Virus record (IMG/VR): IMGVR_UViG_2850784384_000009
Location: 1-16,376 of that record
Source: a virus
Taxonomy: Duplodnaviria > Heunggongvirae > Uroviricota > Caudoviricetes
Reading direction: 5' to 3' (one strand)
DNA: 16,376 nucleotides
The notes under the pieces were generated by a model. That model saw only the letters and a program-made list of their open reading frames with translations, was not told the origin of the DNA and did not search any database. The stretch's first letter is position 1, and every line of letters starts with the position of its first letter. The position numbers were made by a program, and so were the translations under genes. Below are positions 1 through 16,376 of the stretch, in pieces.

Positions 1-819
1 ATGTGTCAGGTATTTGGTGTATCCAGGAGCGGTTATTACAACTGGGTACAGCATGAACCCTCAGACAGAAAACAAAGTGATGAGCGGCTAAAACCGGAGA
101 TTAAGGTGGCACATATCCGCACTCGCGAAACATATGGAACCCGGCGGCTCCAGACGGAGCTGGCAGAGAATGGCATCATCGTTGGTCGTGACCGACTGGC
201 ACGTCTTCGTAAGGAGCTGAGGCTACGCTGTAAGCAGAAACGCAAGTTCAGAGCGACTACGAACCCGAACCACAATCTGCCAGTTGCGCCAAATCTGCTG
301 AACCAGACGTTCGCTCCTACAGCACCAAATCAGGTCTGGGTGGCGGACCTGACGTATGTTGCCACACAGGAGGGATGGTTGTACCTCGCTGGCATCAAAG
401 ATGTTTATACGTGCGAAATTGTCGGCTACGCCATGGGAGAGCGCATGACAAAAGAGCTGACAGGTAAAGCCCTGTTTATGGCGCTCAGGAGCCAGCGCCC
501 ACCTGCCGGGCTAATCCACCACTCTGATCGAGGTTCACAGTACTGCGCATACGATTACCGGGTCATACAGGAGCAGTTTGGTCTGAAAACATCAATGTCG
601 CGTAAAGGTAACTGTTACGACAACGCTCCGATGGAAAGCTTCTGGGGAACGCTGAAAAATGAGAGCCTGAGCCACTATCGTTTTAATAACCGGGATGAAG
701 CCATCTCAGTAATACGGGAATACATTGAGATTTTCTACAATCGTCAGCGTCGTCACTCTCGTCTGGGGAATATCTCCCCGGCAGCCTTCAGGGAAAAATA
801 TCATCAGATGGCTGCTTAA
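1..819 (+). CDS. IS3-family transposase OrfB (DDE integrase-type catalytic domain), IS600 ORF2
   Basis: 272-aa ORF beginning MCQVFGVSRSGYYNW; the same protein recurs on the minus strand at 4529..5230. Normally expressed as an OrfAB fusion by -1 frameshifting. Confidence 0.9.
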   Translation: MCQVFGVSRSGYYNWVQHEPSDRKQSDERLKPEIKVAHIRTRETYGTRRLQTELAENGIIVGRDRLARLRKELRLRCKQKRKFRATTNPNHNLPVAPNLLNQTFAPTAPNQVWVADLTYVATQEGWLYLAGIKDVYTCEIVGYAMGERMTKELTGKALFMALRSQRPPAGLIHHSDRGSQYCAYDYRVIQEQFGLKTSMSRKGNCYDNAPMESFWGTLKNESLSHYRFNNRDEAISVIREYIEIFYNRQRRHSRLGNISPAAFREKYHQMAA

Positions 820-861
820 AAAAGAACAAATGGTAGTGTCCGCTATTGCCAGTACACCTCA
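1..861 (+). mobile_element. IS600 (IS3 family) partial copy A: OrfB through the right inverted repeat; OrfA and left end lie upstream of the window
   Basis: OrfB protein matches the IS600 ORF2 sequence as I recall it. The element end ...gccagtacacctca at 861 is the inverse complement of the left-end motif tgaggt... seen at 15912 and at 5632 (minus). The window starts at the OrfB ATG. Confidence 0.8.
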
Positions 862-945
862 ACTTGTGAAGGAAATGGTACTCAGGGGGATTCCAGTACA
901 GGTGGTGCGCAATTAGCTATAAATGGCCTTAACGGTTCGTGCGCT

Positions 946-1569
946 TTGGTATTAAACAACCCATACTTTGAGGCTAATGCCGGGGGGGCAGACCTTGCTA
1001 TAGATAATACTGGGACGCGCCCTGTAACTGTGGTTATAAACGGTGGAAATTTTCATCGCGTGAGCAGTGCAAGATACACGCACACGAATATTCAAGTAAC
1101 AAGCTCAGGTGGGGGAAAAGTTACAGTCATACTCAACGGCACAACGTTCCAGAGCGCAGGGGATTATCAGCCAAGTGCAGAACGACCATACTGGATAACA
1201 GGAGCTAATTGCGAGGTAGTTGACATTGGGTGTGTTTTTACAGAAACAACCAGTAAGGTAACATCGGCTTCTGCATTGTCAGTCACACGCTCGGGAAAAA
1301 TTAACGCCAATGGTAGTATCGACGTTGCTACTGGTGTTTCATCGGTTAACGTGGTTTCTACAGGTGTGTATGATGTTAGCTTTTCTCATCCGCTCGCAGC
1401 AGTTGCTAGCGGTTATATTGTGCAGATAACACCTATATCTGCGCCTGATTCAGTTAGTTGTGATGTTACTTATATTGGCGTAGATACATTTAGGGTGACC
1501 CTGCGCAATACGCTTAGCGGGGCAGGAATCTCCAGTTCGTTTGCATTTAGCATTACCAGACTAATATAA
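946..1569 (+). CDS. 5'-truncated gene fragment of unknown function; possibly the C-terminal receptor-binding part of a tailspike or tail fibre
   Basis: ORF starts at a TTG, but the frame is open with no stop and no start codon back to the IS600 end at 862, so the native 5' part was removed by the IS. It occupies the tailspike position of Sf6/P22 gene order (tailspike, O-antigen modification gene, attP, int). The protein is Gly/Ser/Thr/Val-rich, which fits a beta-rich fold; no motif recognised. Confidence 0.35.
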   Translation: MVLNNPYFEANAGGADLAIDNTGTRPVTVVINGGNFHRVSSARYTHTNIQVTSSGGGKVTVILNGTTFQSAGDYQPSAERPYWITGANCEVVDIGCVFTETTSKVTSASALSVTRSGKINANGSIDVATGVSSVNVVSTGVYDVSFSHPLAAVASGYIVQITPISAPDSVSCDVTYIGVDTFRVTLRNTLSGAGISSSFAFSITRLI

Positions 1570-1622: not shown

Positions 1623-2795
1623 TTATTGATTGTTGTTTGTTAATGTGGGTATTAATTCTTTTACTAAAGTTGTGGTTTGTTTTGTTAATTTGATGAATGG
1701 CGTCTCTATTAATTTAAAAGTTAGGCATGATGTGAACGTAATAAGAAATGCAGTTGTGCTTACCAGTATGATAAATGTATTTTCAGTGTAATTATTAGGA
1801 ATAATCCACGTCATTAGGCAATAAAGGAATATCCCATGCAGAAGGTAAACGCTGTAGGTAGTTTCTCCTAGCTTTCTGGTTATATTTAATCTTAATATTC
1901 CATACAAATCACAACCTGATGCGATAATGATAAATGTTATTCCACAAAGAATCAGTGGTAGCGGTGCGTAAGTTGTTTTGAAATACGTCATTTCAAAAAC
2001 CATTATCGCAGTTATTATAATTGGTGTTACTTTTGCTTTGGCAATTCCATTGACTATCTTTGATTTATTTAGCAAAAATGCCAGGAGCCCAAAAAGAAAT
2101 GATGCTATGTGTATTTTACTGAAAAATAAAATGAAAACAAATAGCGATATTGCGCTAATCATAACCATGTAAATACTGACTTTTCTTTTTATGAGCGCGG
2201 AAATTACCGGAAGAGAAAAATAAAAGAACCATTCATATACAAGTGTCCATGTTACAGCGGCATTGATAGTAAATGAATCTTTTACGTCATTAATGTTCGG
2301 CATACCTAGCGCAGTGAATGGCAACCACTTCATTATTGACACAAAAAGCTCTTCTGTGGATACCTGCATTCTCCATCCAGACTTAAAACCTACAATGATA
2401 AAAATGAGACATAGGCTAACTATGAACATTGGGGTTAATCGTAGTAATCTTGATACATAAAGCCTTGTCCAGTCCTGATCTCCAGAGATAATCTTTGAAA
2501 AGAACAGATAACCAGTAATCATAAAAAAGAATGACACACCAACTTGGCCTAAATTTGCTAACAGATTTGATGAAGGTGCTTCCCATACTCCAGATGACAA
2601 GTATCCATTCCAAATTGCTGCGTGATGAATAAGCACGAAAATTGCTAAGAACCCCCGCATTCCATCTATTTGATTATTCCTGCCGTGCTCAACAAGATTT
2701 ATTGGGGAAATTTTATCAAATAACCCCACAGCTAATAACGACATCAATATCACGGATGTTATTAATAATAAACTGTTAATTTCAATCATATGCAT
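1623..2795 (-). CDS. Acyltransferase family 3 integral membrane protein; putative O-antigen O-acetyltransferase (Oac/OafA-like serotype-conversion protein)
   Basis: 390-aa ORF, strongly hydrophobic throughout (multiple predicted TM segments). N-terminal DGMRGFLAIFVLIHHA resembles the acyltransferase-3 signature (conserved R...H). Markedly AT-rich compared with neighbouring phage genes. Sits immediately next to the att core, as oac does in Sf6 and gtr does in P22. Confidence 0.75.
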   Translation of the reverse strand: MHMIEINSLLLITSVILMSLLAVGLFDKISPINLVEHGRNNQIDGMRGFLAIFVLIHHAAIWNGYLSSGVWEAPSSNLLANLGQVGVSFFFMITGYLFFSKIISGDQDWTRLYVSRLLRLTPMFIVSLCLIFIIVGFKSGWRMQVSTEELFVSIMKWLPFTALGMPNINDVKDSFTINAAVTWTLVYEWFFYFSLPVISALIKRKVSIYMVMISAISLFVFILFFSKIHIASFLFGLLAFLLNKSKIVNGIAKAKVTPIIITAIMVFEMTYFKTTYAPLPLILCGITFIIIASGCDLYGILRLNITRKLGETTYSVYLLHGIFLYCLMTWIIPNNYTENTFIILVSTTAFLITFTSCLTFKLIETPFIKLTKQTTTLVKELIPTLTNNNQ

Positions 2796-3083: not shown

Positions 3084-3129
3084 ATTCGTAATGCGAAGGT
3101 CGTAGGTTCGACTGCTATTATCGGCACCA
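3084..3129 (+). other. Phage attachment core: 3' 46 nt of a tRNA-Thr gene (thrW-type), attP-like
   Basis: attcgtaatgcgaaggtcgtaggttcgact(g)ctattatcggcacca matches the anticodon-loop-to-CCA end of tRNA-Thr(CGU) as recalled. Upstream sequence is not the tRNA 5' half, so no complete tRNA is present. One apparent T-stem mismatch relative to my recollection of thrW. Confidence 0.75.
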
Positions 3130-3143
3130 TTTAAATCAATAAG

Positions 3144-3592
3144 TTACACATCATTAGTACCTTCCTTATTTCTTGACTGGGACAAATTTGGGACCGATGG
3201 GTTCAGAATCAAGTCTATTTGCCGTGCGTGTTCGGTAAGGTGATTAGGTGCGAGGTGAGCATATCGACGAACCATTTCGATAGACTCCCAGCCTCCCATT
3301 TCCTGTAACACTGATAACGGGACTCCGGCTTGAACCAGCCAACTTGCCCAGGTGTGTCTCAAGTCGTGAAATCTGAAATCATCAATACCAGCCCGTCTCA
3401 GCGCCGCTTTCCAGGCTGTGTTTGCGTCATACCGCATCTTCCTTACTGTTGGCGCTTTCGTTCCGTCTGGTTTGGTACAGCTTTCCTTGTACACAAATAC
3501 CCAACGGTGATGATTTCCGATTTGTTTTTTCAATACGCGACATGCAGTATCATTCAGCGCAACGCCAATTGCGCGGTTTGATTTACTCTCTT
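3144..3592 (-). pseudogene. int: Tyrosine integrase, C-terminal catalytic fragment (P22-type Int), separated from its N-terminal part by IS600
   Basis: Contains [15 protein letters not shown] and VRRYAHL (the H-x-x-R and Y of the catalytic tetrad). The first 5 codons of the track ORF 3144..3608 come from the IS600 end. Reads on directly from the N-terminal fragment at 5633..6350. Confidence 0.85.
3590..3592. repeat. 3-bp target-site duplication (ctt) of IS600 copy B, left copy; right copy at 5633..5635
   Basis: ctt immediately flanks both ends of the element (3590..3592 and 5633..5635). Confidence 0.8.
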
Positions 3593-3775
3593 TGAGGTGT
3601 ACTGGCAATAGCGGACACTACCATTTGTTCTTTTTTAAGCAGCCATCTGATGATATTTTTCCCTGAAGGCTGCCGGGGAGATATTCCCCAGACGAGAGTG
3701 ACGACGCTGACGATTGTAGAAAATCTCAATGTATTCCCGTATTACTGAGATGGCTTCATCGGTAATGACTCCAAC

Positions 3776-4279
3776 TTACTGATAGTGTTTTATGTTCAGA
3801 TAATGCCCGATGACCTTGTCATGCAGCTCCACCGATTTTGAGAACGACAGTGACTTCCGTCCCAGCCTTGCCAGATGTTGTCTCAGATTCAGATTATGTC
3901 GCTCAATGCGCTGAGTGTAACGCTTGCTGATAACGTGCAGCTTTCCCTTCAGGCGTGATTCATACAGCGGTCAGCCATCCGTCATCCATACCACGACCTC
4001 AAAGGCCGACAGCAGGCTCAGAAGACGCTCCAGTGTGGCCAGAGTGCGTTCCCCGAAGACGTGCGCCACAACCGTCCTCCGTATCCTGTCATACGCGTAA
4101 AACAGCCAGCGCTGACGTGATTTAGCACCGACGTAGCCCCAATGTTCGTCCATTTCAGCGCAGACAATCACATCACTGCCCGGTTGTATGCGCGAGGTTA
4201 CCGACTGCGGCCTGAGTTTTTTAAGTGACGTAAAACCGTGTTGAGGCCAACGCCCATAATGCGTGCGCTGGCGCGACAT
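3776..4279 (-). pseudogene. insB: IS1 insB reading frame interrupted by an in-frame TGA
   Basis: Frame reads ...VVVWMTDG then TGA (minus-strand codon at 3971..3973) where canonical InsB has Trp (TGG). The frame then continues [27 protein letters not shown]... to the normal end. Confidence 0.75.
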
Positions 4280-4473
4280 CCGACGCCATTCATGGCCATA
4301 TCAATGATTTTCTGGTGCGTACCGGGCTGAGAGGCGGTGTAAGTGAACTGTAGTTGCCATGTTTTACGGCAATGAGAGCAGAGATAGCGCTGATGTCCGG
4401 CAGTGCTTTTGCCGTTACGCACCACGCCTTCAGTAGCGGAGCAGGAAGGACATCTGATGGAAATGGAAGCCAC
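4198..4473 (-). CDS. insA: IS1 InsA (transposition inhibitor / N-terminal part of InsAB')
   Basis: 91-aa [46 protein letters not shown]..., close to canonical InsA with a few substitutions. Confidence 0.9.
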
Positions 4474-4528
4474 GCAAGCACCTTAAAATCACCATCATAC
4501 ACTAAATCAGTAAGTTGGCAGCATTACC

Positions 4529-5230
4529 GGCTTCATCCCGGTTATTAAAACGATAGTGGCTCAGGCTCTCATTTTTCAGCGTTCCCCAGAAGCTTTCCAT
4601 CGGAGCGTTGTCGTAACAGTTACCTTTACGCGACATTGATGTTTTCAGACCAAACTGCTCCTGTATGACCCGGTAATCGTATGCGCAGTACTGTGAACCT
4701 CGATCAGAGTGGTGGATTAGCCCGGCAGGTGGGCGCTGGCTCCTGAGCGCCATAAACAGGGCTTTACCTGTCAGCTCTTTTGTCATGCGCTCTCCCATGG
4801 CGTAGCCGACAATTTCACACGTATAAACATCTTTGATGCCAGCGAGGTACAACCATCCCTCCTGTGTGGCAACATACGTCAGGTCCGCCACCCAGACCTG
4901 ATTTGGTGCTGTAGGAGCGAACGTCTGGTTCAGCAGATTTGGCGCAACTGGCAGATTGTGGTTCGGGTTCGTAGTCGCTCTGAACTTGCGTTTCTGCTTA
5001 CAGCGTAGCCTTAGCTCCTTACGAAGACGTGCCAGTCGGTCACGACCAACGATGATGCCATTCTCTGCCAGCTCCGTCTGGAGCCGCCGGGTTCCATATG
5101 TTTCGCGAGTGCGGATATGTGCCACCTTAATCTCCAGTTTTAGTCGCTCATCACTTTGTTTTCTGTCTGAGGGTTCATGCTGTACCCAGTTGTAATAACC
5201 GCTCCTGGATACACCAAATACCTGACACAT
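4529..5230 (-). pseudogene. IS600 OrfB transposase, 5' part, disrupted by the IS1 insertion (3' remainder at about 3635..3760)
   Basis: Identical to the plus-strand OrfB up to ...FNNRDEA, then the sequence runs into the IS1 end. The last residues of the track ORF 4502..5230 are IS1-derived. Confidence 0.85.
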
Positions 5231-5265
5231 CGCTTCAATGGGAAATTGTTGTCGCCATTGTTCGA

Positions 5266-5568
5266 TTAACGCGTATTTTTCAGCGACTCCTGTGCAAAAT
5301 ACGCTGTTGCTTTTTTTAATATATCTCGCTCAAGGCGAGCTTCATTTAACGCCTTACGCAGTTGCAGAATTTCAGATTCCAGTTCAGCCACCGTGCGGGA
5401 ACCAGGAGTACCGAGCCCTTTTCTGGCGGCGGTAACCCATTGTCCTAAAGTGCCTTCAGGAAGGAATAATCGGGAAGCGTCTTCACTGATCGAAAGTTGA
5501 TTTTCAAGAACCGTTCTGACAGCTTCGGCTTTGAACTCTTTAGAGTAACGTCGGGTTTTTCTGCTCAT
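5266..5568 (-). CDS. IS600 OrfA (helix-turn-helix / leucine-zipper transposase N-terminal protein)
   Basis: 100-aa ORF MSRKTRRYSKEFKAEAVRTVLENQLSISE..., matching IS600 ORF1 as recalled. Confidence 0.9.
   Translation of the reverse strand: MSRKTRRYSKEFKAEAVRTVLENQLSISEDASRLFLPEGTLGQWVTAARKGLGTPGSRTVAELESEILQLRKALNEARLERDILKKATAYFAQESLKNTR
5311..5317 (-). promoter_or_regulatory. Probable programmed -1 ribosomal frameshift slippery site (A7) for the IS600 OrfAB fusion
   Basis: ttttttt on the plus strand is A AAA AAA on the coding strand, near the 3' end of OrfA where the OrfB frame overlaps. This is the standard IS3-family arrangement. Confidence 0.5.
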
Positions 5569-5632
5569 TATTAGCTCCTTCTGATGCCATTCTATTTCAG
5601 GAAGGAGTGTCCGTTAAACTCAGGCTACCTCA

Positions 5633-6350
5633 CTTCCGGGTTTATCCATGCCACCCGGCGCTGCATATCTATTTGTTGCCATTCAAGGTTGATGATGTTC
5701 GAGCGTCTTAAGCCTGTTGCCAGTGCAAATTCAACAACAGACTTTAATGGCTCCGGACATTCATCAATCAGCCTTTGTGCTTCATGGGGCTCCAGCCAGC
5801 GGATCCGTTTATTCTTTGGTTGAGGCACTTTAATAATTGGTGCCTTATCCAGCATTTTCCATTCACGCTCTGCGGCTCTTAGTAGGGCCTTTATAAATGA
5901 AAGATGCGTAGCCTTCGTTGCAACGGACGCTGGTTTTGGCGTGTATTCTGGAACAGGTTTCCCTTTTTTTCTGCATGATTCTGCCCTGAGTTTCCAGTTT
6001 TCCTCATGACGCCGGTTCGTCATTTTCTGCATTGCTGAATAAATTTTTGATTCAGTAATGTCTCTTAGTTGTATTCCTGCGAAATGTTGAAGCCAGAATC
6101 CGATCCGGCTTTTGTCATCGTCCAGTGATTTTTTATGTGCTTTCTCTTCAAGCCACCTGACACACGCTTCCTCGAACGTTATATCAGGTATTTCACCAAG
6201 TTTGCTGACCCGCCATGCTTCAGCCTTTAGCTTGTCATGGAGTTCTGTCGCCTGCCTTTTGTCCTTTGTTCCAAGAGACTGTTTAAATCTTTTACCGTTC
6301 GGCAATGTGAAACTGGCGTACCATATTTCACCTCTGCGGAAGAGTGACAT
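5633..6350 (-). pseudogene. int: Tyrosine integrase, N-terminal fragment (P22-type Int), interrupted by IS600
   Basis: [46 protein letters not shown]... matches the P22 Int N-terminus as recalled. Contains TGLRRSNI (the first catalytic Arg). The last 3 codons of the track ORF plus the stop are IS-derived. Confidence 0.85.
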
Positions 6351-6428
6351 TTTCTTTCCTCTGTTATGCCATCACCCGCGCTCACCTGGACAGTATGCAG
6401 CGGAGACTGAAGAGCCGCAATGAAGTGG

Positions 6429-7597
<1,169 letters not shown>

Positions 7598-7669
7598 TGG
7601 AGCACCTGTGTTGTTCTGAGGTGAGCATATCACCTCTGTTCAGGTGGCCAAATTCAGTGTGCCACTTCA

Positions 7670-8824
7670 TGGATGCCTGTTGAGCAGGAAGCGCCAACCC
7701 AGACTGGCTGGGATTTAACTGGCAACGCAACCGGGATTCTGGAACTCTCCGTGAAGTGCAACATGGGCGATCCGGATAACGATTTCTTCGAGCTTCGTGC
7801 AGATGACCTGCGTGATGAGCGTTCTTACCGTCGCCGCATCCAGGCATCCGCCAAAAAACTGGCGAATAACATTGAGTCAGCGATTGCCAAACAGGCAACT
7901 GAAATGGGCTCGCTTGTTGTTCACGATACCCGCGCAATTGGTCCATCGACTGGCCTGCCTGGCTGGGATTTTGTGTCTGATGCAGAGCGACTGATGTTCT
8001 CCCGTGAGCTAAACCGCGACATGGGCATCAGTTACTTCCTGAACCCTGACGATTACCGCAAAGCAGGCCGCAACCTGGTAGATGGTGACATCTTCGGGCG
8101 CGTTCCTGAAGAAGCATATCGAAACGGTACTATTCAGCGTCAGATTGCTGGCTTTGATGAAATTCTTCGCTCACCGAAACTTCCGGCAGTTACCAAGTCA
8201 ACCGCGACTGGTGTAACTGTTTCTGGTGCGCAGAAGTTTAAGCCGCAGGCATACACCCTTGATACCGATGGTAACAAAGAGAACGTCGACAACCGTGTTG
8301 CAACGGTGACCGTATCCTCCACCACCGGATTTAAGCGCGGCGACAAAATCAGCTTCATTGGTGTGAAGTTCCTGTCTCAGATGGCGAAGAATGTGCTGAC
8401 TGATGACGCGACTTTCTCAATCACCCGTGTGATCGATGGTACTCACATCGAAATCACGCCGAAGCCGATTGCGCTGGATGACGCGTCACTGACAAAAGAA
8501 GAGAAGGCTTACGCTAACGTAAACACCTCTCTTGCTGATACCACTCCGGTAAACGTTCTGAACGTGGCAACAACCACCGCTAACGTGTTCTGGGCTGATG
8601 ACTCAATCCGCCTGCTGTCTCAGCCGATCCCGGTAACCCATGAACTGTTTGCTGGCATGAAAACGTCTTCCTTCAGCATTCCAGGTATTGGTGTTAACGG
8701 CATCTTCGCAACGCAGGGTGATATCAACACTCTGTCTGGTAAGTGCCGTATTGCTGTGTGGTATTCAGCATGTGCTGTACGACCAGAGGCAATTGGTGTT
8801 GGTCTGCCTAACCAGACCGCGTGA
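7670..8824 (+). pseudogene. P22-type major capsid (coat) protein gene, 5'-truncated at the IS911 boundary
   Basis: Reading frame from 7670 gives [18 protein letters not shown]... ending GVGLPNQTA, which aligns with P22 gp5 from about residue 46 to its C-terminus as recalled. No native start or ribosome-binding site; IS911 directly abuts. Confidence 0.85.
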
Positions 8825-8868
8825 TAACCAGAGGGAGCTTCGGCTCCCGTTTTTATCTGGAGACAAGC

Positions 8869-9093
8869 ATGACACACATGATCTTTCGTCATGGCGACAT
8901 GAAGAAGTGGAAAGGCGTTGGCTACGACTTTGAAATCGTGAAAGCCGAAGAGCTTCAGGAATATCTGGATGCTGGCTGGTTTTCACATCCTGATGACCTT
9001 TTGAAGGATGTTGCAGAGCCAGAAGAAAAACAGTGTAAAAAGCCTGGTCGAAAACCTAAGGCGGCAGCAGATGAACCTGACAACGAAGGGTGA
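8869..9093 (+). CDS. Small hypothetical protein between the coat and gp4-like genes
   Basis: ATG at 8869 preceded by ggaga. 74 aa with an acidic, Lys/Pro-rich C-terminus. Overlaps the gp4-like start by 23 bp. The track ORF start at 8821 overlaps the coat stop and is unlikely. Confidence 0.4.
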
Positions 9094-9571
9094 TTTAGTT
9101 CTTGCGGCATTACGTAAGCTCGGTGTTGCATCAAATGCCACGTTAACCGATGTCGAACCGCAGTCTATGGAAGACGGCGTCAACGACCTTGAAATGATGA
9201 TGGCTGAATGGCTTGGCGGTGATGCGTCACCTGGTATCAACGTTGGCTACATTTTTGCTGATGCAGATGTTGCTCCGGATCCGGGCGATGAGCACGGTTT
9301 ATCAAATAACGCTATCAATGCCGTCATTTTCAACCTTGCCTGCCGAATTGCTCCAGATTATGCGCTGGAAGCGTCTGCAAAACTTATAACCACTGCCAGA
9401 TACGGGAAAGAGCGACTCGTCAAACTGTCTGCAATGGACAGGGCAAAAGCAGCTAAATGTAAGTCCGGTTATCCAAACCGTATGCCTGTTGGTAGTGGTA
9501 ACCAGTTGGCGAAGTGGAATGGTTGGAATTACTTCCACCGAAAGGAACCTTGCGATAACGGGAGCGAATAA
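9071..9571 (+). CDS. P22 gp4-like head completion / portal-closure protein
   Basis: From the internal Met: [33 protein letters not shown]... is 166 aa and resembles P22 gp4 as recalled. The upstream 21 codons of the track ORF are probably not translated. Confidence 0.75.
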
Positions 9572-10989
9572 TGCCTATTCAGCAACTTCCGCTTATGAAA
9601 GGTGTCGGCAAAGACTTCCGAAACGCCGACTATATCGACTATCTGCCAGTGAATATGCTGGCTACACCCAAAGAAATCCTGAACAGCAGCGGATATCTTC
9701 GCTCATTCCCGGGCATTGCCAAACGTTCTGACGTGAACGGTGTATCTCGCGGCGTCGAGTACAACATGGCGCAGAATGCTGTTTATCGCGTGTGTGGCGG
9801 CAAGCTGTACAAAGGAGAAAGTGAAGTCGGTGATGTTGCCGGAAGTGGTCGTGTATCAATGGCGCATGGTCGGACATCACAGGCGGTAGGCGTTAATGGT
9901 CAACTGGTCGAGTATCGCTATGATGGCACGGTCAAAACCGTCTCAAACTGGCCTACAGACAGTGGATTCACTCAGTATGAGTTAGGTTCAGTTCGCGACA
10001 TTACGCGCTTACGTGGGCGTTATGCGTGGTCAAAAGACGGAACTGATTCATGGTTTATCACTGACCTTGAAGACGAATCTCATCCTGACCGTTACAGCGC
10101 ACAATATCGTGCCGAGTCTCAGCCTGACGGCATCATCGGTATCGGGACATGGCGAGACTTCATCGTCTGCTTTGGTTCATCGACTATTGAATATTTCTCC
10201 CTGACTGGCGCAACCACCGTTGGTGCCGCTTTGTATGTTGCACAACCATCGCTGATGGTGCAGAAAGGCATTGCCGGAACTTACTGCAAAACGCCATTCG
10301 CTGATTCGTATGCGTTTATCAGCAATCCGGCAACGGGTGCGCCGTCTGTGTATATCATCGACTCCGGTCAGGTGTCACCAATTGCCAGCGCGAGCATTGA
10401 GAAAATCCTCCGCTCCTACACTGCTGATGAACTGGCTGATGGTGTGATGGAATCGCTGCGATTTGATGCTCATGAGTTGCTGATTATCCACCTTCCGCGT
10501 CACGTCCTCGTGTACGACGCATCTTCAAGCGCCAATGGCCCACAATGGTGTGTGCTGAAAACAGGTCTGTATGACGATGTGTACCGCGCTATCGACTTCG
10601 TTTACGAAGGCAATCAGATAACGTGCGGCGATAAGCTGGAATCTGTTACCGGGAAACTGCAATTCGATATCAGCAGCCAGTACGACAAGCAACAGGAACA
10701 CCTGCTGTTTACTCCACTCTTCAAAGCGGATAACGCCAGAGTGTTCGACCTTGAGGTTGAATCGTCAACTGGCGTTGCGCAGTACGCCGACCGCCTTTTT
10801 CTCTCTGCAACCACTGACTGCATCAATTACGGGCGTGAGCAGATGATTGAGCAGAATGAACCGTTCGTTTACGACAAGCGTGTTTTGTGGAAGCGAGTAG
10901 GGCGCATCAGGAAAAATGTCGGCTTCAAATTGCGCGTTATCACGAAGTCACCTGTCACTCTGTCTGGCGCTCAGATAAGGATTGAGTAA
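9571..10989 (+). CDS. P22 gp10-like head completion / tail hub protein
   Basis: 472 aa starting [49 protein letters not shown], near-identical to P22 gp10 as recalled. Start overlaps the upstream stop (taATG). Confidence 0.85.
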
Positions 10990-11786
10990 TGGCTGATTCG
11001 AATCTCAATGTGCCGGTAATCATCCAAGCTACGCGGCTCGATACATCAGTCCTTCCACGCAATATCTTCTCGCAGTCGTATCTGCTTTACGTTATCGCAC
11101 AGGGCACTGATGTTGGTAACGTGGCTAACAAAGCCAACGAGGCCGGACAGGGCGCTTATGATGCACAGGTCAGGAACGATGAGCAGGATGTGATTCTCGC
11201 TGACCATGAGCAGCGAATTTCTGCTGCGGAAGCAACGCTTGTTAATCATGAGGAGCGAATCAGACAGGCAGAATCAACTCTTCAGGACCATGAAACACGA
11301 ATAGCTCAGAATGAAAGCGATATTTCGTCGCTTGACACAAGAGTTCAGTCGCTGGAGTCGCAGGTTTCAGACCATGAAACGCGCATCGATGCTCTGGAGT
11401 ATGCAACCACACGCAAGAAGTCAGAGGTTGTTTACTCTGGTGTATCTGTAACCATCCCGACAGCGCCGACCAACCTTGTTAGCCTGCTGAAAACGCTCAC
11501 ACCGTCATCCGGCTCGTTGGCACCATTCTTCGACACCGTTAACAACAAGATGGTTGTGTTCAACGAGAACAAAACCCTGCTCTTCAAGTTGTCGATTGTC
11601 GGCACGTGGCCCAGCGGAACCGCCAACAGGTCAATGCAGCTAACCTTTTCCGGCTCTGTTCCTGACACACTGGTCAGCAGTCGTAATGCGGCGACAACAA
11701 CCGACAACATCCTGTTAGCTACGTTCTTCAGCGTGGATAAAGACGGCTTTCTTGCCACAACCATCAAGATAATCGCGGAGCAGTGA
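10989..11786 (+). CDS. P22 gp26-like tail needle (cell-envelope penetrating plug) with an extended C-terminal domain
   Basis: Conserved N-terminus [41 protein letters not shown]. Central 14-residue periodic repeat (DHExRI...) typical of the trimeric coiled-coil core. About 125 aa of C-terminal domain beyond the helical core. Confidence 0.8.
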
Positions 11787-12241
11787 TGATTACATTCAAA
11801 CCAACGCGAAACATCGACCTGATAGAAGCAGTCGGAAATCACCCTGACATTATCGCCGGGAGCAACAACGGTGATGGATACGACTACAAACCTGAATGCC
11901 GTTACTTTGAGGTGAACGTGCACGGTCAGTTTGGCGGCATTGTTTACTATCAGGAGATTCAGCCGCTGACATTAGATTGCCACGCCATGTACCTGCCAGA
12001 GATTCGCGGCTTCAGCAAGGAAATTGGGCTGGCGTTCTGGCGATACATTCTGACTAACACCACCGTTCAGTGCGTAACATCGTTCGCTGCACGCAAATTC
12101 CGACACGGTCAGATGTACTGCGCAATGATTGGCCTTAAGCGTGTAGGAACCATCAAGAAATACTTCAAAGGCGTGGATGACGTGACTTTTTACAGCGCCA
12201 CACGCGAAGAACTAATCGACTTCCTGAATCACGGGAGATAG
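11783..12241 (+). CDS. gp14-position virion assembly/ejection-associated protein
   Basis: Intact 152-aa ORF immediately after the needle gene with an ATGA start/stop overlap. Assigned by synteny with P22 (26, 14, 7, 20, 16). Confidence 0.55.
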
Positions 12242-12243
12242 CC

Positions 12244-12852
12244 ATGTTATATGCATTTAAGCTGGGCAGAAAACTGTGCGGCGAGGAACCTTATTGCCCT
12301 GAAAAAGGCGGGAAAGGTGGCAGTTCTGATAAAAGCGCAAAGTATGCAGCAGAAGCCCAGAAGTATGCTGCAGACCTGCAAAATCAGCAGTGGCAGACGA
12401 TCATGAAAAACCTTGCTCCGTTCACGCCTCTTGCGGAGCAGTATGTTAACCAGCTTCAGAACCTTTCCAGTTTAGAAGGTCAGGGGCAGGCACTTAATCA
12501 GTATTACAACTCTAAGCAGTATAAAGACCTTGCAGGGCAGGCGCGTTACCAGAGTCTTGCTGCTGCGGAGGCGACGGGTGGACTTGGTTCGACAGCCACA
12601 AGCAATCAACTGGCTACGATCGCGCCGACACTCGGTCAGTCTTGGTTATCAAATCAGATGAGCAATTACAACAATCTGGCAAACGTTGGGCTTGGTGCGC
12701 TGCAAGGTCAGGCAAACGCCGGGCAGACGTACGCCAACAACATGAGCAGCATTGCACAGCAAAGCGCAGCTCTTGCCAGCCTTTTGGGAACATCAACGCC
12801 TTGGGGCGCTGGTATTGGTGCTGGTATCGGATTGCTTGGCTCGTTGTTTTAA
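12244..12852 (+). CDS. gp7-like ejection (internal virion) protein
   Basis: 202-aa ORF MLYAFKLGRKLCGEEPYCPEKGGKGGSS... with a Gly-rich hydrophobic C-terminus. Assigned by synteny and N-terminal resemblance. Confidence 0.6.
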   Translation: MLYAFKLGRKLCGEEPYCPEKGGKGGSSDKSAKYAAEAQKYAADLQNQQWQTIMKNLAPFTPLAEQYVNQLQNLSSLEGQGQALNQYYNSKQYKDLAGQARYQSLAAAEATGGLGSTATSNQLATIAPTLGQSWLSNQMSNYNNLANVGLGALQGQANAGQTYANNMSSIAQQSAALASLLGTSTPWGAGIGAGIGLLGSLF

Positions 12853-12861
12853 GGGGTAATC

Positions 12862-14193
12862 ATGGCTACTTGGCAAGGAACAAACGGCGGATTGTTGGCT
12901 GGTATCGGCGGCGTCAACTCAAACGCTCCGAGCGTAAATGACATCGGCAATACGCTTCAGCTTATCAGGCAGAACAATGATATTGAGCGTTCAGGCGCTA
13001 ACAATGTTGGGCTGACTGCTTTGCAAGGTCTTTCAGGTATTGCGGGTGTTTTTCAGCAGGAAAAGCAGGCTCAGCGGCAGAAAGAATTTCAGCAGGCGTA
13101 CGCTAATGCTTATGCGTCTGGTGATCGCGGTGCTTTGCGTCAGTTGGCTACTCAATATCCAGACCAGATTGAATCCGTTCGTAAAGGCATGGGATTCATT
13201 GATGAAGAGCAGCGTAATTCTATCGGCACCTTAGCGGCTGGCGCACGCCTTGCGTCATCGTCTCCAGAAGCAATGCAATCATGGCTGCAAAACAACGCCG
13301 GTGAGTTAGCTCGTGTTGGCGTTAATCCTCATGACGTCGCTCAGATGTACCAACAGAACCCGCGGCAGTTCGGCGAATTTGTCGATCACCTGGGGATGAA
13401 CAGTCTCGGGCCCGAAAAATACTTTGACCTACAGGATAAAATGCAGGGTCGCCAGGTTACCATGCGCGGTCAGGATCTGGATTCGCAAACCGCCGCTCGG
13501 AATCAGGCAATCACAATGCGCGGACAAGATATCCAGGCGAATTTAGGTCAGCAGCGCATTAATCTGGACGCAGAAACAAACCGCATTAACAACGAAAATA
13601 AGCGCCTTGACCGGATGCTATCAGCAGAAACTAACGACCTGAAGCGCCAGGAAATACAGAGCCGCATAGCAGCCAACAACCAGCAGTTGCAGCAGAAGCA
13701 GCAAGCGCTAAATGATGGCTACAAAGACGGCATCAACACCCTCACAACCAGCATGTTCACTCTGAACGATATCGTTAGTTCTCCTTCACTTAAGAGCATT
13801 ACAGGCTTACGTGGAGTAATCCCCAACGTTCCAGGCTCACAGGCTGCAGACACTCAGGCACGACTTGATACCTTTAAATCACAAGCATACCTGACAGCGG
13901 TTCAGGCCATGCGAGGCATGGGCGCACTTTCTGATGCCGAGGGCAAAAAGCTCGACCAGGCTGTTGGTTCGCTGCAGAACTCGCAGAGCGAGGAGTCCTT
14001 TCGTCGCAACGCTGGCGTCATCCTGAACACGCTCAACCAGAAGCGTAATGAGGCGGTTGGTAAGTACGTTCAGCAAAACGGTATCAAGCGAGTGGAAGCG
14101 CCTCAGGCTTCTATAGATTACCTGAAGCAGCACCCCGAGCTGTCAATCGACTTCATTAATCGCTACGGATATCTTCCATCTTTGGGGCAGTAA
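12862..14193 (+). CDS. gp20-like ejection (internal virion) protein
   Basis: 443-aa ORF, Gln/Asn-rich with internal TMRGQD repeats. Assigned by synteny. Confidence 0.6.
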   Translation: MATWQGTNGGLLAGIGGVNSNAPSVNDIGNTLQLIRQNNDIERSGANNVGLTALQGLSGIAGVFQQEKQAQRQKEFQQAYANAYASGDRGALRQLATQYPDQIESVRKGMGFIDEEQRNSIGTLAAGARLASSSPEAMQSWLQNNAGELARVGVNPHDVAQMYQQNPRQFGEFVDHLGMNSLGPEKYFDLQDKMQGRQVTMRGQDLDSQTAARNQAITMRGQDIQANLGQQRINLDAETNRINNENKRLDRMLSAETNDLKRQEIQSRIAANNQQLQQKQQALNDGYKDGINTLTTSMFTLNDIVSSPSLKSITGLRGVIPNVPGSQAADTQARLDTFKSQAYLTAVQAMRGMGALSDAEGKKLDQAVGSLQNSQSEESFRRNAGVILNTLNQKRNEAVGKYVQQNGIKRVEAPQASIDYLKQHPELSIDFINRYGYLPSLGQ

Positions 14194-15924
14194 ATGGCTA
14201 ATTACCGTGATTTGTTAGAGCAGGCTGGCGCACGTTACGGTGTGCCAGAAGGGTTGATGACTGCACTGGGTGCCAAGGAGTCTTCTTACAACCCTGCCGC
14301 AGTAAGCTCCGCCGGGGCTGTAGGATTGACTCAGGTCATGCCTGGGACATGGCGTGATATGGGTTATACCGATGAGCAAATGCAAAACCCCGAATATCAG
14401 GCTGACGCTGGCGCGCGCTATCTGGCAAAGATGTACCAGCAGTTTGGTAACTGGCGTGACGCTCTTCAGGCTTATCACGACGGTCCCGGCAACGTTATGA
14501 AGGCAAAGCGTGGTGAATATACGCCAGGACCTGAAGGCCGCGGTTACGTTGATGATCGCTTTGCTCAATGGGCTGGTGACCCGGTGACAGACTCAACAGT
14601 CGAACAGCGCGCCACCTCTGCAAAGGTACATCCTCAGCAAGACCCTAACAACCCGTTTGCACAACTGGAAGTACAGTCATCCGAACAAGTATCGGCATCA
14701 GGTGTGCAGTCAGACCCAAATAATCCATTTGCTCAGATTGAGCAGCAGGCAGCCAGTCAGCAGCCACCTCAACCCGTAAGTTCTGTCGCACCGAAACCTG
14801 TTCAGCAACAAACAGTTAATCAGGCCAATAATGCACCAACACGGGAAGAACCATCATTGATGCAACAAGCTGGCGATTGGCTCACTGGTGGTCAAAGTGC
14901 AGGGCAAATTGCAGAACAGGCTGGTCGTGGTCTGGTAAACATACCATTTGACGTATTGCAGGGTGGCGCAAGTCTGATTAATGCAATCAGTCAGGGGCTT
15001 GGGGGGCCAAAAGTATTGGATGATGTTTATCGTCCAGTAGACAGACCGACAGACCCCTACGCGCAAGCTGGAGAGTCAATAGGCGGTTATCTTGTTCCTG
15101 GAGCAGGTGTAGCTGGAAACATGGTCATTGGTTCTCTCGCTGACGCGGCGAATCAACGGGGTGATTTTGCCGAAAATGCCGCTATTAATGCCGGACTTAG
15201 CATTGCTACGCATGGCCTGATAAATGGCGTTACCCGTGGTGTTCGTGGTGCATCAAATATAATTAGTGGCAATAAAACATCTGCACAGAGAGCGACCACT
15301 GCGCCAACAGAAACATCACCATTCTCCGGTGATGCCGCTGCAGCAACAAATCCTGCGGTTCATGCCGCAGAGGCAAGAGTAGCACAAGGTGTACCAATGA
15401 CGCCTGCGACGAAGAACCCAGAGGAAGTCGTTCGCACAGTAGCAGCACAAAAAAGGCCAAATCTCGCTTCATCGCTTGATGAACTAGATATCAATCCTCA
15501 GGCTGAAGTTCTGGAGTCTGCTGAAAGGCTTAATGTTGATTCATTACTCCCTTCACACTTTTCCGGGAACGAGCAATACAAGGCAGTTGAGCAAGCAATC
15601 AAGTCCCGTGCGGGTTCTGCTCTACAGGTGCAGGAAAATGAAGCAATCAGGCAGCTAGCACAGGGCGCGGGTGAGATAATTGATCGCGTTTCCGGTGCAA
15701 AAGATGCTCTTGGTATGAGCGACAAGTTTATTGATACGGTCAATGGAAGAATGTCTGCGCTGATGAAACGAAGCGACCAGCTTTATCGCAATGTTGAAAA
15801 GGCGATGCCTGCAGGTGCAAAAATTGATGCGCCATCAACAAGGTCAATGCTCAAACAGGTGGCAGAAGATCTTGGCGGGATGAAAAACCTTGACCCTATT
15901 GAAAAGAGAGTTGAGGTAGCCTGA
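14194..15924 (+). CDS. gp16-position ejection protein with N-terminal lytic transglycosylase (SLT) domain; 3' end replaced by the IS600 terminus
   Basis: N-terminal [28 protein letters not shown] plus AYHDGPGNV are SLT-family motifs including the catalytic Glu-Ser. The last 4 codons (VEVA) and the stop lie inside the IS600 left end, which starts at 15912. Confidence 0.7.
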
Positions 15925-15995
15925 GTTTAACGGACACTCCTTCCTGAAATAGAATGGCATCAGAAGGAGCTAATAATGAGCAGAAAAACCCAACG
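15912..15995 (+). mobile_element. IS600 left-end fragment (inverted repeat plus first 7 codons of OrfA), interrupted by IS629
   Basis: tgaggtagcctgagtttaacggacactccttcctgaaatagaatggcatcagaaggagctaataatgagcagaaaaaccc is identical to the inverse complement of 5553..5632. It diverges at 15996 where IS629 begins. Confidence 0.85.
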
Positions 15996-16376
15996 TGAAC
16001 CGCCCCGGGAATCCTGGAGACTAAACTTCCTGAGAAAGAGGTAAACAGGATGACTAAAAATACTCGTTTTTCCCCCGAAGTCCGTCAACGGGCAGTCCGT
16101 ATGGTTCTGGAAAGTCAGGGCGAATATGACTCACAATGGGCGACAATTTGTTCCATTGCCCCAAAGATTGGCTGTACGCCGGAGACTCTGCGTGTCTGGG
16201 TTCGCCAGCATGAGCGGGATACCGGGGGCGGTGATGGAGGGCTCACCACCGCTGAACGTCAGCGTCTGAAAGAGCTGGAGCGTGAAAATCGTGAACTGCG
16301 CCGCAGTAACGATATCCTTCGCCAGGCTTCCGCTTATTTTGCGAAGGCGGAGTTCGACCGCCTCTGGAAAAAATGA
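15996..16376 (+). mobile_element. IS629 (IS3 family), left end and OrfA; continues beyond the window
   Basis: Starts tgaaccgccccgggaatcctggagac, the IS629 terminus as recalled, followed by OrfA. Confidence 0.8.
16050..16376 (+). CDS. IS629 OrfA
   Basis: 108-aa [53 protein letters not shown]...AEFDRLWKK. The window ends at its stop codon. Confidence 0.85.

Follow-up and report, generated by a model that had tools for sequence, protein, structure and literature searches.

An oacB-carrying, circularly permuted prophage remnant of Shigella flexneri with an IS600 split between direct copies of IS629

Gene content of the oacB phage remnant

The window analysed here is a stretch of 16,376 nucleotides (IMG/VR record IMGVR_UViG_2850784384_000009). 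It is an exact substring of the CP034060.1 chromosome (2329-18704 of the locus that we examined), which belongs to S. flexneri FDAARGOS_535, a strain of in silico serotype 1b (PMC9455713). Because the window lies exactly within this chromosome, both of its flanks can be read.

IS600 and IS629 were placed on the locus by BLAST with reference copies. For IS600 we used the copy of E. coli 720632, annotated in RefSeq as 'IS3-like element IS600 family transposase', a 1264-bp element that begins with TGAGGTAGCC, ends in CACCTCA and is flanked by a CTG target duplication. For IS629 we used the 1310-bp copy of E. coli MB06102, 1310 bp being also the length of IS629 in ISfinder. The features found are listed below by position in the window.

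1-861, plus strand: right part of IS600, from about base 403 (the orfB ATG) to the right end at base 1264 (99.3-99.5% identity)
862-1569, plus strand: tailspike gene, C-terminal fragment comprising roughly the final 236 codons, with the in-frame start TCEGNGTQ... (nucleotides 91% identical to Sf101 15761-16408; the protein aligns with the tail protein of Sf101)
1623-2795, minus strand: oacB, an intact O-antigen 3/4-O-acetyltransferase gene of 390 aa (Pfam Acyl_transf_3, E = 2.8e-32; aligns to Sf101 'O-acyltransferase B')
3086-3129, plus strand: attP core, uncut, which matches the thrW tRNA-Thr gene at its 3' end in all but one position
3144-3592, minus strand: C-terminal part of the integrase gene (Pfam Phage_integrase)
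3593-5632, minus strand: second IS600, within int (BLAST matches to bases 1-1104 and 1096-1264)
3761-4528: IS1 of 768 bp within the second IS600, with the 9-bp duplication GGCTTCATC
5633-6350, minus strand: N-terminal part of the integrase gene
6421-7669, minus strand: IS911-like element of 1249 bp (matches over RefSeq 'IS3-like element IS911 family transposase')
7670-15911, plus strand: P22/Sf6-like late genes (Pfam, gene calls, and alignments to Sf101 and APC_JM3.2)
15912-15995, plus strand: IS600 stub, bases 1-84, comprising the left inverted repeat and orfA up to its seventh codon (100% identity)
15996-16376, continuing to 17300, plus strand: IS629-B, of which bases 1-381 fall within the window, beginning at the left inverted repeat and ending with the stop codon of orfA (BLAST and junction reading)

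The integrase gene is interrupted by the second IS600, which is flanked by a 3-bp CTT duplication (the second CTT copy is 5633-5635). When the insertions are removed and the two parts of int are rejoined (3144-3592 and 5636-6350), an uninterrupted ORF of 387 aa is obtained. The IS911-like element directly connects the region upstream of int with a truncated coat gene. Reading of its junctions revealed no target duplication at 6421-7669, with CAA on one side and TGG on the other. The coat gene is without approximately 48 N-terminal codons (Pfam P22_CoatProtein, profile positions 50-422) and is followed by homologues of gp4, gp10, gp26, gp14, gp7 and gp20 and by a transglycosylase gene in the gp16 position (14194-15924), which is cut at approximately codon 573 of 911. 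The gp4 homologue is widespread among P22-like prophages of E. coli, and a look-up with it gave one further Shigella-type locus, CP085202.1, and not that of CP026871.1.

The IS600 pieces at the ends of the window

Both ends of the window contain part of an IS600 element. BLAST matched bases 1-85 of the reference at 15912-15996 and bases 80/82-1264 at -322 to 861, where negative numbers denote positions to the left of the window. The match at 15912-15996 is identical at 85 of 85 positions. Base 85 of IS600 is a T, and so is base 1 of IS629, hence the unambiguous stub is 84 bp long. The orfA start codon in the stub lies at 15976, and after 7 codons the frame is interrupted by IS629-B, whose left end reads TGAACCGCCCCGGG... 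from 15996; the stop codon of the gp16 ORF (15922-15924) falls within the stub. The right terminus of IS600 reads ...GTACACCTCA and ends at 861. Judged by their sequence, such near-identical IS600 and IS629 matches, of 84 to 1300 bp, cannot be chance.

These alignments bear out the original prediction, made from the letters of the window, that an intact 84-bp left end of IS600 at 15912 runs into an IS629 terminus and that 1-861 holds IS600 OrfB through its right end in the same orientation. Its statement that the 3-bp flanks are unequal is also correct, as read directly: AGT precedes 15912 (...gagAGT/IS600, with slashes marking element boundaries here and below) and ACT follows 861 (...cctca/ACTtgtg). 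There is consequently no 3-bp target duplication around the split IS600. AGT and ACT both belong to the phage itself and have the orientation seen in the intact phage Sf101 (KJ832078), in which the gp16 breakpoint corresponds to position 13248 and the tailspike breakpoint to approximately 15701, with about 2.45 kb between them gone from the remnant. The unequal triplets and the missing phage DNA indicate that the split IS600 is not a simple insertion, but marks a deletion, which agrees with the earlier suggestion that both flanking genes were truncated by an IS-associated deletion. We also considered an inversion between two IS600 copies, AGT and ACT being reverse complements of each other. 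This was rejected, as both triplets are native in the Sf101 orientation and the pattern is unlike that of an inversion.

Two IS629 copies and the chromosomal flanks

To the right of the window in CP034060.1, IS629-B is complete (15996-17300) and is followed by ATCAGGTATCAGG... and by psiF, phoA, iraP and ddlA. To the left, IS600 extends back only to base 82, at window position -320; before it lies another IS629 in the same orientation (copy A, -1626 to -321), upstream of which we read ...GTTAGCACTATC and then adrA and proC. The locus is therefore laid out as adrA, ATC, IS629-A, ACG with IS600(82-1264), tailspike fragment, oacB, attP and int in its first half, and continues up to coat to gp16 fragment, IS600(1-84, ending in ACG), IS629-B, ATC and psiF in its second. 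Shigella-type chromosomes were found via exact-protein look-ups with the truncated gp16, oacB and the truncated coat. The left junction is identical in seven independent assemblies, including that of 2457T (AE014073.1), and the right junction in nine, including LM651928.1 and G1663. An assembly artefact is ruled out because these junctions recur, without change, in many independent complete genomes.

The two IS629 copies measure 1305 and 1306 bp and share one orientation, and three positions distinguish one from the other. They are 99% identical to 1310-bp E. coli copies, and IS629 of this locus matches the 'insertion sequence:IS629' of Stx2 phage 1717 (NC_011357) at 95.4% identity over 100% of its length. 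The copies are assigned to IS629 by these values, taking as its marks a length of 1310 bp, the termini TGAACCGCCCC...GGGGCGGTTCA and an identity of 95% or more to a copy annotated as IS629. A 4-bp deletion that disrupts orfB is common to all S. flexneri IS629 copies examined, and the copies are now probably defective.

The sequence at the inner boundaries of the two copies shows how the IS600 pieces are related. The stub ends ...CCCAACG/TGAACC at IS629-B, and IS629-A passes into IS600 at base 82 as GGTTCA/ACGTTACTCT, so that the IS600 remainder, 320 bp to the left of window position 1, begins with ACGTTACTC... directly after IS629. ACG represents bases 82-84 of IS600. The ACG closing the stub (15993-15995) is one copy of the IS629 target duplication, and the insertion point of IS629 lies after base 84. 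Since ACG occurs once at each side, there was a single IS629 insertion into a single IS600, and the IS600 pieces at the two ends of the window are halves of one element split by IS629. Rejoined with one ACG removed, stub and remainder give an IS600 of 1263 bp, which has TG...CA termini and is nearly identical to the E. coli copy over approximately 1264 bp, with five substitutions and one indel.

The undivided arrangement is present in one genome, CP026871.1, where the order is gp16 fragment, IS600(1-84), ACG/IS629/ACG, IS600(82-1264), tailspike fragment and oacB. The 3-bp ACG duplication is thus found around one IS629 in CP026871.1 and is shared between copies A and B in CP034060.1, in which ATC is outermost. 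The unit of CP026871.1 lies between two inverted IS911 copies, with an IS911 to the left of a truncated portal gene, and adjoins a gtr prophage remnant. Its unsplit form could be ancestral, or it could have resulted from excision by IS629-IS629 recombination followed by re-insertion.

The entire unit of 18,927 bp in CP034060.1 is bracketed by ATC (ATC/IS629-A ... IS629-B/ATC), the outer junctions reading cactATC/IS629-A/ACGttactc and caACG/IS629-B/ATCaggtatc. The target ATC is located 5 bp beyond the psiF stop codon, within a 101-bp spacer upstream of adrA. We joined both chromosomal flanks with a single ATC and used the resulting sequence as an empty-site query; of 5426 complete E. coli genomes, 5421 aligned with the whole of it without a break. 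In E. coli CP53, for example, the empty site reads GTTAGCACTATCAGGTATCAGG (core ...gttagcactATCaggtatcagg...). The presence of ATC on both sides of the unit therefore indicates a chromosomal insertion, and the unit has the composition of an IS-bounded fusion, namely the same IS directly repeated at its ends, an outer target duplication and an empty site in relatives. The chromosome junctions of the oacB unit are at the adrA-psiF site in every assembly returned. A scan of species-representative genomes gave no match to the IS629/ATC-psiF junction and one match, CP178302.1, to the adrA-ATC/IS629 junction.

These flanks bear on the present state of the phage DNA. It had been proposed that the two terminal IS600 pieces are one element and that the phage map continues in a circle from one window end to the other, in keeping with a tandem or episomal arrangement, and that the sequence beyond both ends should be inspected. 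This inspection gave a divided answer, as each IS600 piece has its own IS629 neighbour, which speaks against a tandem, and the two share one ACG duplication, which speaks for one element. The single-element reading is upheld by this duplication, by the rejoined sequence of 1263 bp and by the unsplit form in CP026871.1, and the latter also supports circular contiguity as a matter of history. That the remnant is now tandem or episomal, with the right end of the window running into its left end, is very improbable and is contradicted for CP034060.1 by these flanks. The contiguous gp16 fragment, stub, IS629, IS600 remainder and tailspike fragment of CP026871.1 would suit such an arrangement, as would a map that is a perfect circular permutation, but in CP034060.1 psiF-phoA-iraP-ddlA lies beyond IS629-B, the left IS600 piece adjoins IS629-A and adrA, a single place was returned for the gp16 fragment, and the ATC duplication is that of a chromosomal insertion. 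The circularity is the historical footprint of a single-copy chromosomal insertion and not a current state.

Position of attP and permutation of the phage map

The attP core has oacB on one arm and int on the other. A 25-nt probe from the thrW sequence matched with one mismatch, where no match is expected by chance. The match to the int-attP region of SfI, SfII, SfIV and SfV starts exactly at the core, with 98% identity, and an alignment with the free phage HK446 spans the attP annotated in that phage. On the 5' side of the core, the sequence does not correspond to the 5' half of thrW. An uncut attP with non-thrW sequence 5' of its core indicates that the phage DNA did not enter the chromosome by Int acting at attP. 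Accordingly, the unit does not have the structure of a site-specific prophage, which would be bounded by attL and attR, with int at one end and the conversion gene at the other. Integration at attP would have separated oacB from int in this manner, but here the two flank attP and the late genes are found to the right of int.

The order tailspike, oacB, attP, int, ..., coat and gp16 corresponds to the P22/Sf6-type map in circularly permuted form, with the opening at IS629. Together, the uncut attP and this permutation indicate that the phage DNA was circular or concatemeric when it became fused to the chromosome via IS629. The adjacency of oacB, attP and int could in principle be a hybrid att site between tandem thrW prophages, and the 98% identity of int to the integrases of SfI, SfII, SfIV and SfV would be in keeping with this, but such a site would leave the late genes to the right of int unexplained.

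Proposed history of the locus

Taken as a whole, the data are best explained if the IS600 stub with its IS629 is one end of the oacB cryptic prophage remnant of S. flexneri and if this remnant is circular or multimeric phage DNA joined to the chromosome through IS629, which we regard as very probable. The junctions, the uncut attP, both target duplications and the flanking chromosome were read directly; from them we infer in what order the events occurred and how the fusion came about. A Sf101/Sf6-like podovirus with a thrW-type integrase would first have gained an IS600 between its gp16-position and tailspike genes, with the loss of approximately 2.45 kb. IS629 would then have entered this IS600 after base 84 and duplicated ACG. 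In a third step the phage DNA, either circular or multimerised head to tail, would have joined the chromosome through IS629 at ATC in the adrA-psiF spacer. The insertion of an IS600 (carrying IS1) into int and an IS911-associated deletion of the early region up to the coat gene would be later events.

It may be asked whether the two IS629 copies and both IS600 pieces were inserted independently, with triplets that match by coincidence. Shigella genomes contain many copies of both elements, and in E. coli MB06102 an IS629 has separately hit the left end of an IS600, at base 115. However, the chance of finding both ACG/ACG and ATC/ATC is approximately (1/64)^2, a stub ending at base 84 and a second piece starting at base 82 fit exactly to one duplication, all four pieces have one orientation, and the unsplit form is present in CP026871.1; independent insertions are therefore very improbable.

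Within the preferred explanation, in which phage DNA was fused to the chromosome through IS629, recombination, cointegrate formation and composite transposition yield an identical product, and structure alone does not tell these routes apart. One route is transposition of IS629, with a cointegrate formed from a circle, or with an IS629-genome-IS629 composite arising from a concatemer or tandem dilysogen. The product has the form expected of it, with two direct IS629 copies, an outer ATC duplication and inner ACG flanks from the donor, and the published description of the locus is that of a 'transposon-like structure'. On the other hand, the 4-bp deletion breaks orfB in all IS629 copies seen, so that this route would need transposase supplied in trans or an older intact copy, and recombination with a resident IS629 yields the same product. 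Members of the IS3 family move by copy-out-paste-in of a single IS circle, and cointegrates and very long composites are rare among them. We therefore consider transposition of IS629 possible but doubtful. RecA-dependent recombination of a phage-borne IS629 with a resident IS629 at ATC is somewhat more likely and is favoured here because IS3-family elements normally move as single IS circles and because of the deletion in orfB. A comparison of 20 IS629 copies for hybrid SNP patterns revealed few differences, and the copies look homogenised.

The IS629-bounded unit of 17.6 kb might also still be translocatable, by means of a circle formed by IS629 x IS629 recombination that would contain the rejoined IS600::IS629 and re-enter at other IS copies. 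We consider this improbable. If true, it would explain the unsplit form in CP026871.1, and O-factor 9, an O-antigen acetylation factor, could be lost, regained or moved in S. flexneri without the help of a phage.

Relation to known systems

An oacB 'transposon-like structure' upstream of adrA has been described for S. flexneri serotypes 1a, 1b, 2a, 5a and Y (Wang et al. 2014, J Bacteriol 196:1525, as relayed in PMC4159516, PMC4206707 and PMC8973906), and oacB confers O-factor 9 and resistance to phage Sf6 in this species (PMC8973906). The window is this published and already known locus, in strain FDAARGOS_535. As far as it is relayed in those articles, the published structure is alike in oacB (390 aa), in the site upstream of adrA and in the flanking integrase and insertion sequences, with no difference in kind. 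In the literature searched, apart from the original article of Wang et al. 2014, we did not find IS629 or IS600 tied to oacB in this way; the junction-level reading, with its ACG and ATC triplets and the duplication of IS629, may or may not already be in print.

What the present reading adds is that oacB is anchored in a circularly permuted phage remnant between direct IS629 copies upstream of adrA. The practical value of this is small. Anchoring by direct IS629 copies explains why short-read assemblies break at the oacB locus, and it also explains strain differences there as the result of IS-mediated deletions and inversions. Loss of oacB through IS629-IS629 recombination should be easy.

The closest intact relative is the oacB-carrying P22/Sf6-like phage Sf101, in which the genes from the tail accessory genes to the gp16 position, the tailspike C-terminus and oacB are 90-98% identical to those of the remnant and have the same order. 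The integrase of Sf101 is a different one, encoded on the opposite strand, and its integration site is sbcB (PMC4159516), whereas the remnant has a thrW-type int and attP like those of SfI, SfII and SfV, has lost 2.45 kb between gp16 and tailspike, and occupies the adrA-psiF site via IS629. With IS-bounded replicon fusions, such as cointegrates and composite transposons, the locus shares a direct IS pair around formerly circular DNA, an outer target duplication and inner donor flanks; it differs from them in that a phage genome and not a plasmid was captured, and in that the IS629 copies are probably defective. The locus is an instance of ordinary nested IS activity and IS-mediated rearrangement in Shigella, and it involves no new biological principle. 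Nested elements of Shigella and EHEC, such as those of E. coli MB06102 and the pO145 plasmids, likewise have IS629 near the left end of IS600, but there the insertion is at base 115 and here it is after base 84, which indicates independent events.

Insertions in the integrase gene and probable deletions in tail genes

The integrase gene of the remnant carries a second stack of nested insertion sequences, an IS600 that is itself split by an IS1, and removal of both elements regains an uninterrupted reading frame of 387 aa. The gene is intact in genomes of the 2457T type, in contrast to its interrupted state in the window. The features of this region, together with two deletion points in the tail genes, are as follows (window coordinates).

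3086-3129, thrW-type attP core, uncut, flanked by oacB and int and differing from the 3' end of the tRNA at a single position
3593-5632, second nested stack, IS600 in the integrase gene, flanked by a CTT duplication
3761-4528, IS1 splitting the int-borne IS600, with the 9-bp duplication GGCTTCATC
11744-11760, deletion point in the gp26 homologue
12766-12777, deletion point in the gp7 homologue

The homologues of gp26 (tail needle) and gp7 are shorter in the window (265 and 202 aa) than in other S. flexneri strains (282 and 230 aa, respectively). Because the neighbouring BLAST pieces overlap at the two deletion points, by 17 bp in gp26 and by 12 bp in gp7, the sequences suggest that both genes were shortened by in-frame deletions between short direct repeats.

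Related loci in other genomes

The same phage remnant is present in CP026871.1, where the junction of IS600 and IS629 is unsplit, the coat gene is full-length and the portal gene is truncated. Two inverted copies of IS911 flank this remnant, and a gtrA-gtrB remnant adjoins it. The sister strain CP130061.1 has the same structure without the stretch from coat to gp26 (window 7670-11388), and here IS911 directly abuts the 3' end of the gp26 homologue, immediately upstream of gp14. This shows that IS911-adjacent deletion is ongoing. CP178302.1, titled 'Escherichia coli strain ECMA0423' and one of the species representatives of the genome collection, has a gtr, oacB and adrA locus of S. flexneri type and short-fragment calls for many chromosomal genes. 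The record probably represents a genome of Shigella type in which frameshifts were left uncorrected.

IS629 copies and their target

All S. flexneri IS629 copies examined, among them IS629-A (L023 702-2007 in CP034060.1), IS629-B (window 15996-17300) and one unrelated to the oacB locus, have a 4-bp deletion relative to the E. coli copies (alignment columns 579-582), and IS629-B has a further 1-bp deletion. As orfB is called in fragments in the S. flexneri copies examined, these are probably not autonomous. IS629 also lies within the IS600 left end in E. coli, at base 115 rather than 84 (strain MB06102, L001 3001-4425; pO145 plasmid matches H1-H6), and in MB06102 an integrase fragment follows IS629 in place of the remainder of IS600. 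The IS600 left end may be a preferred target of IS629.

Comparison with known phages

The int and attP core of the remnant share 98% identity with their counterparts in SfI, SfII, SfIV and SfV. Its late genes resemble those of Sf101 and Sf6, which makes the phage ancestral to the remnant a mosaic.
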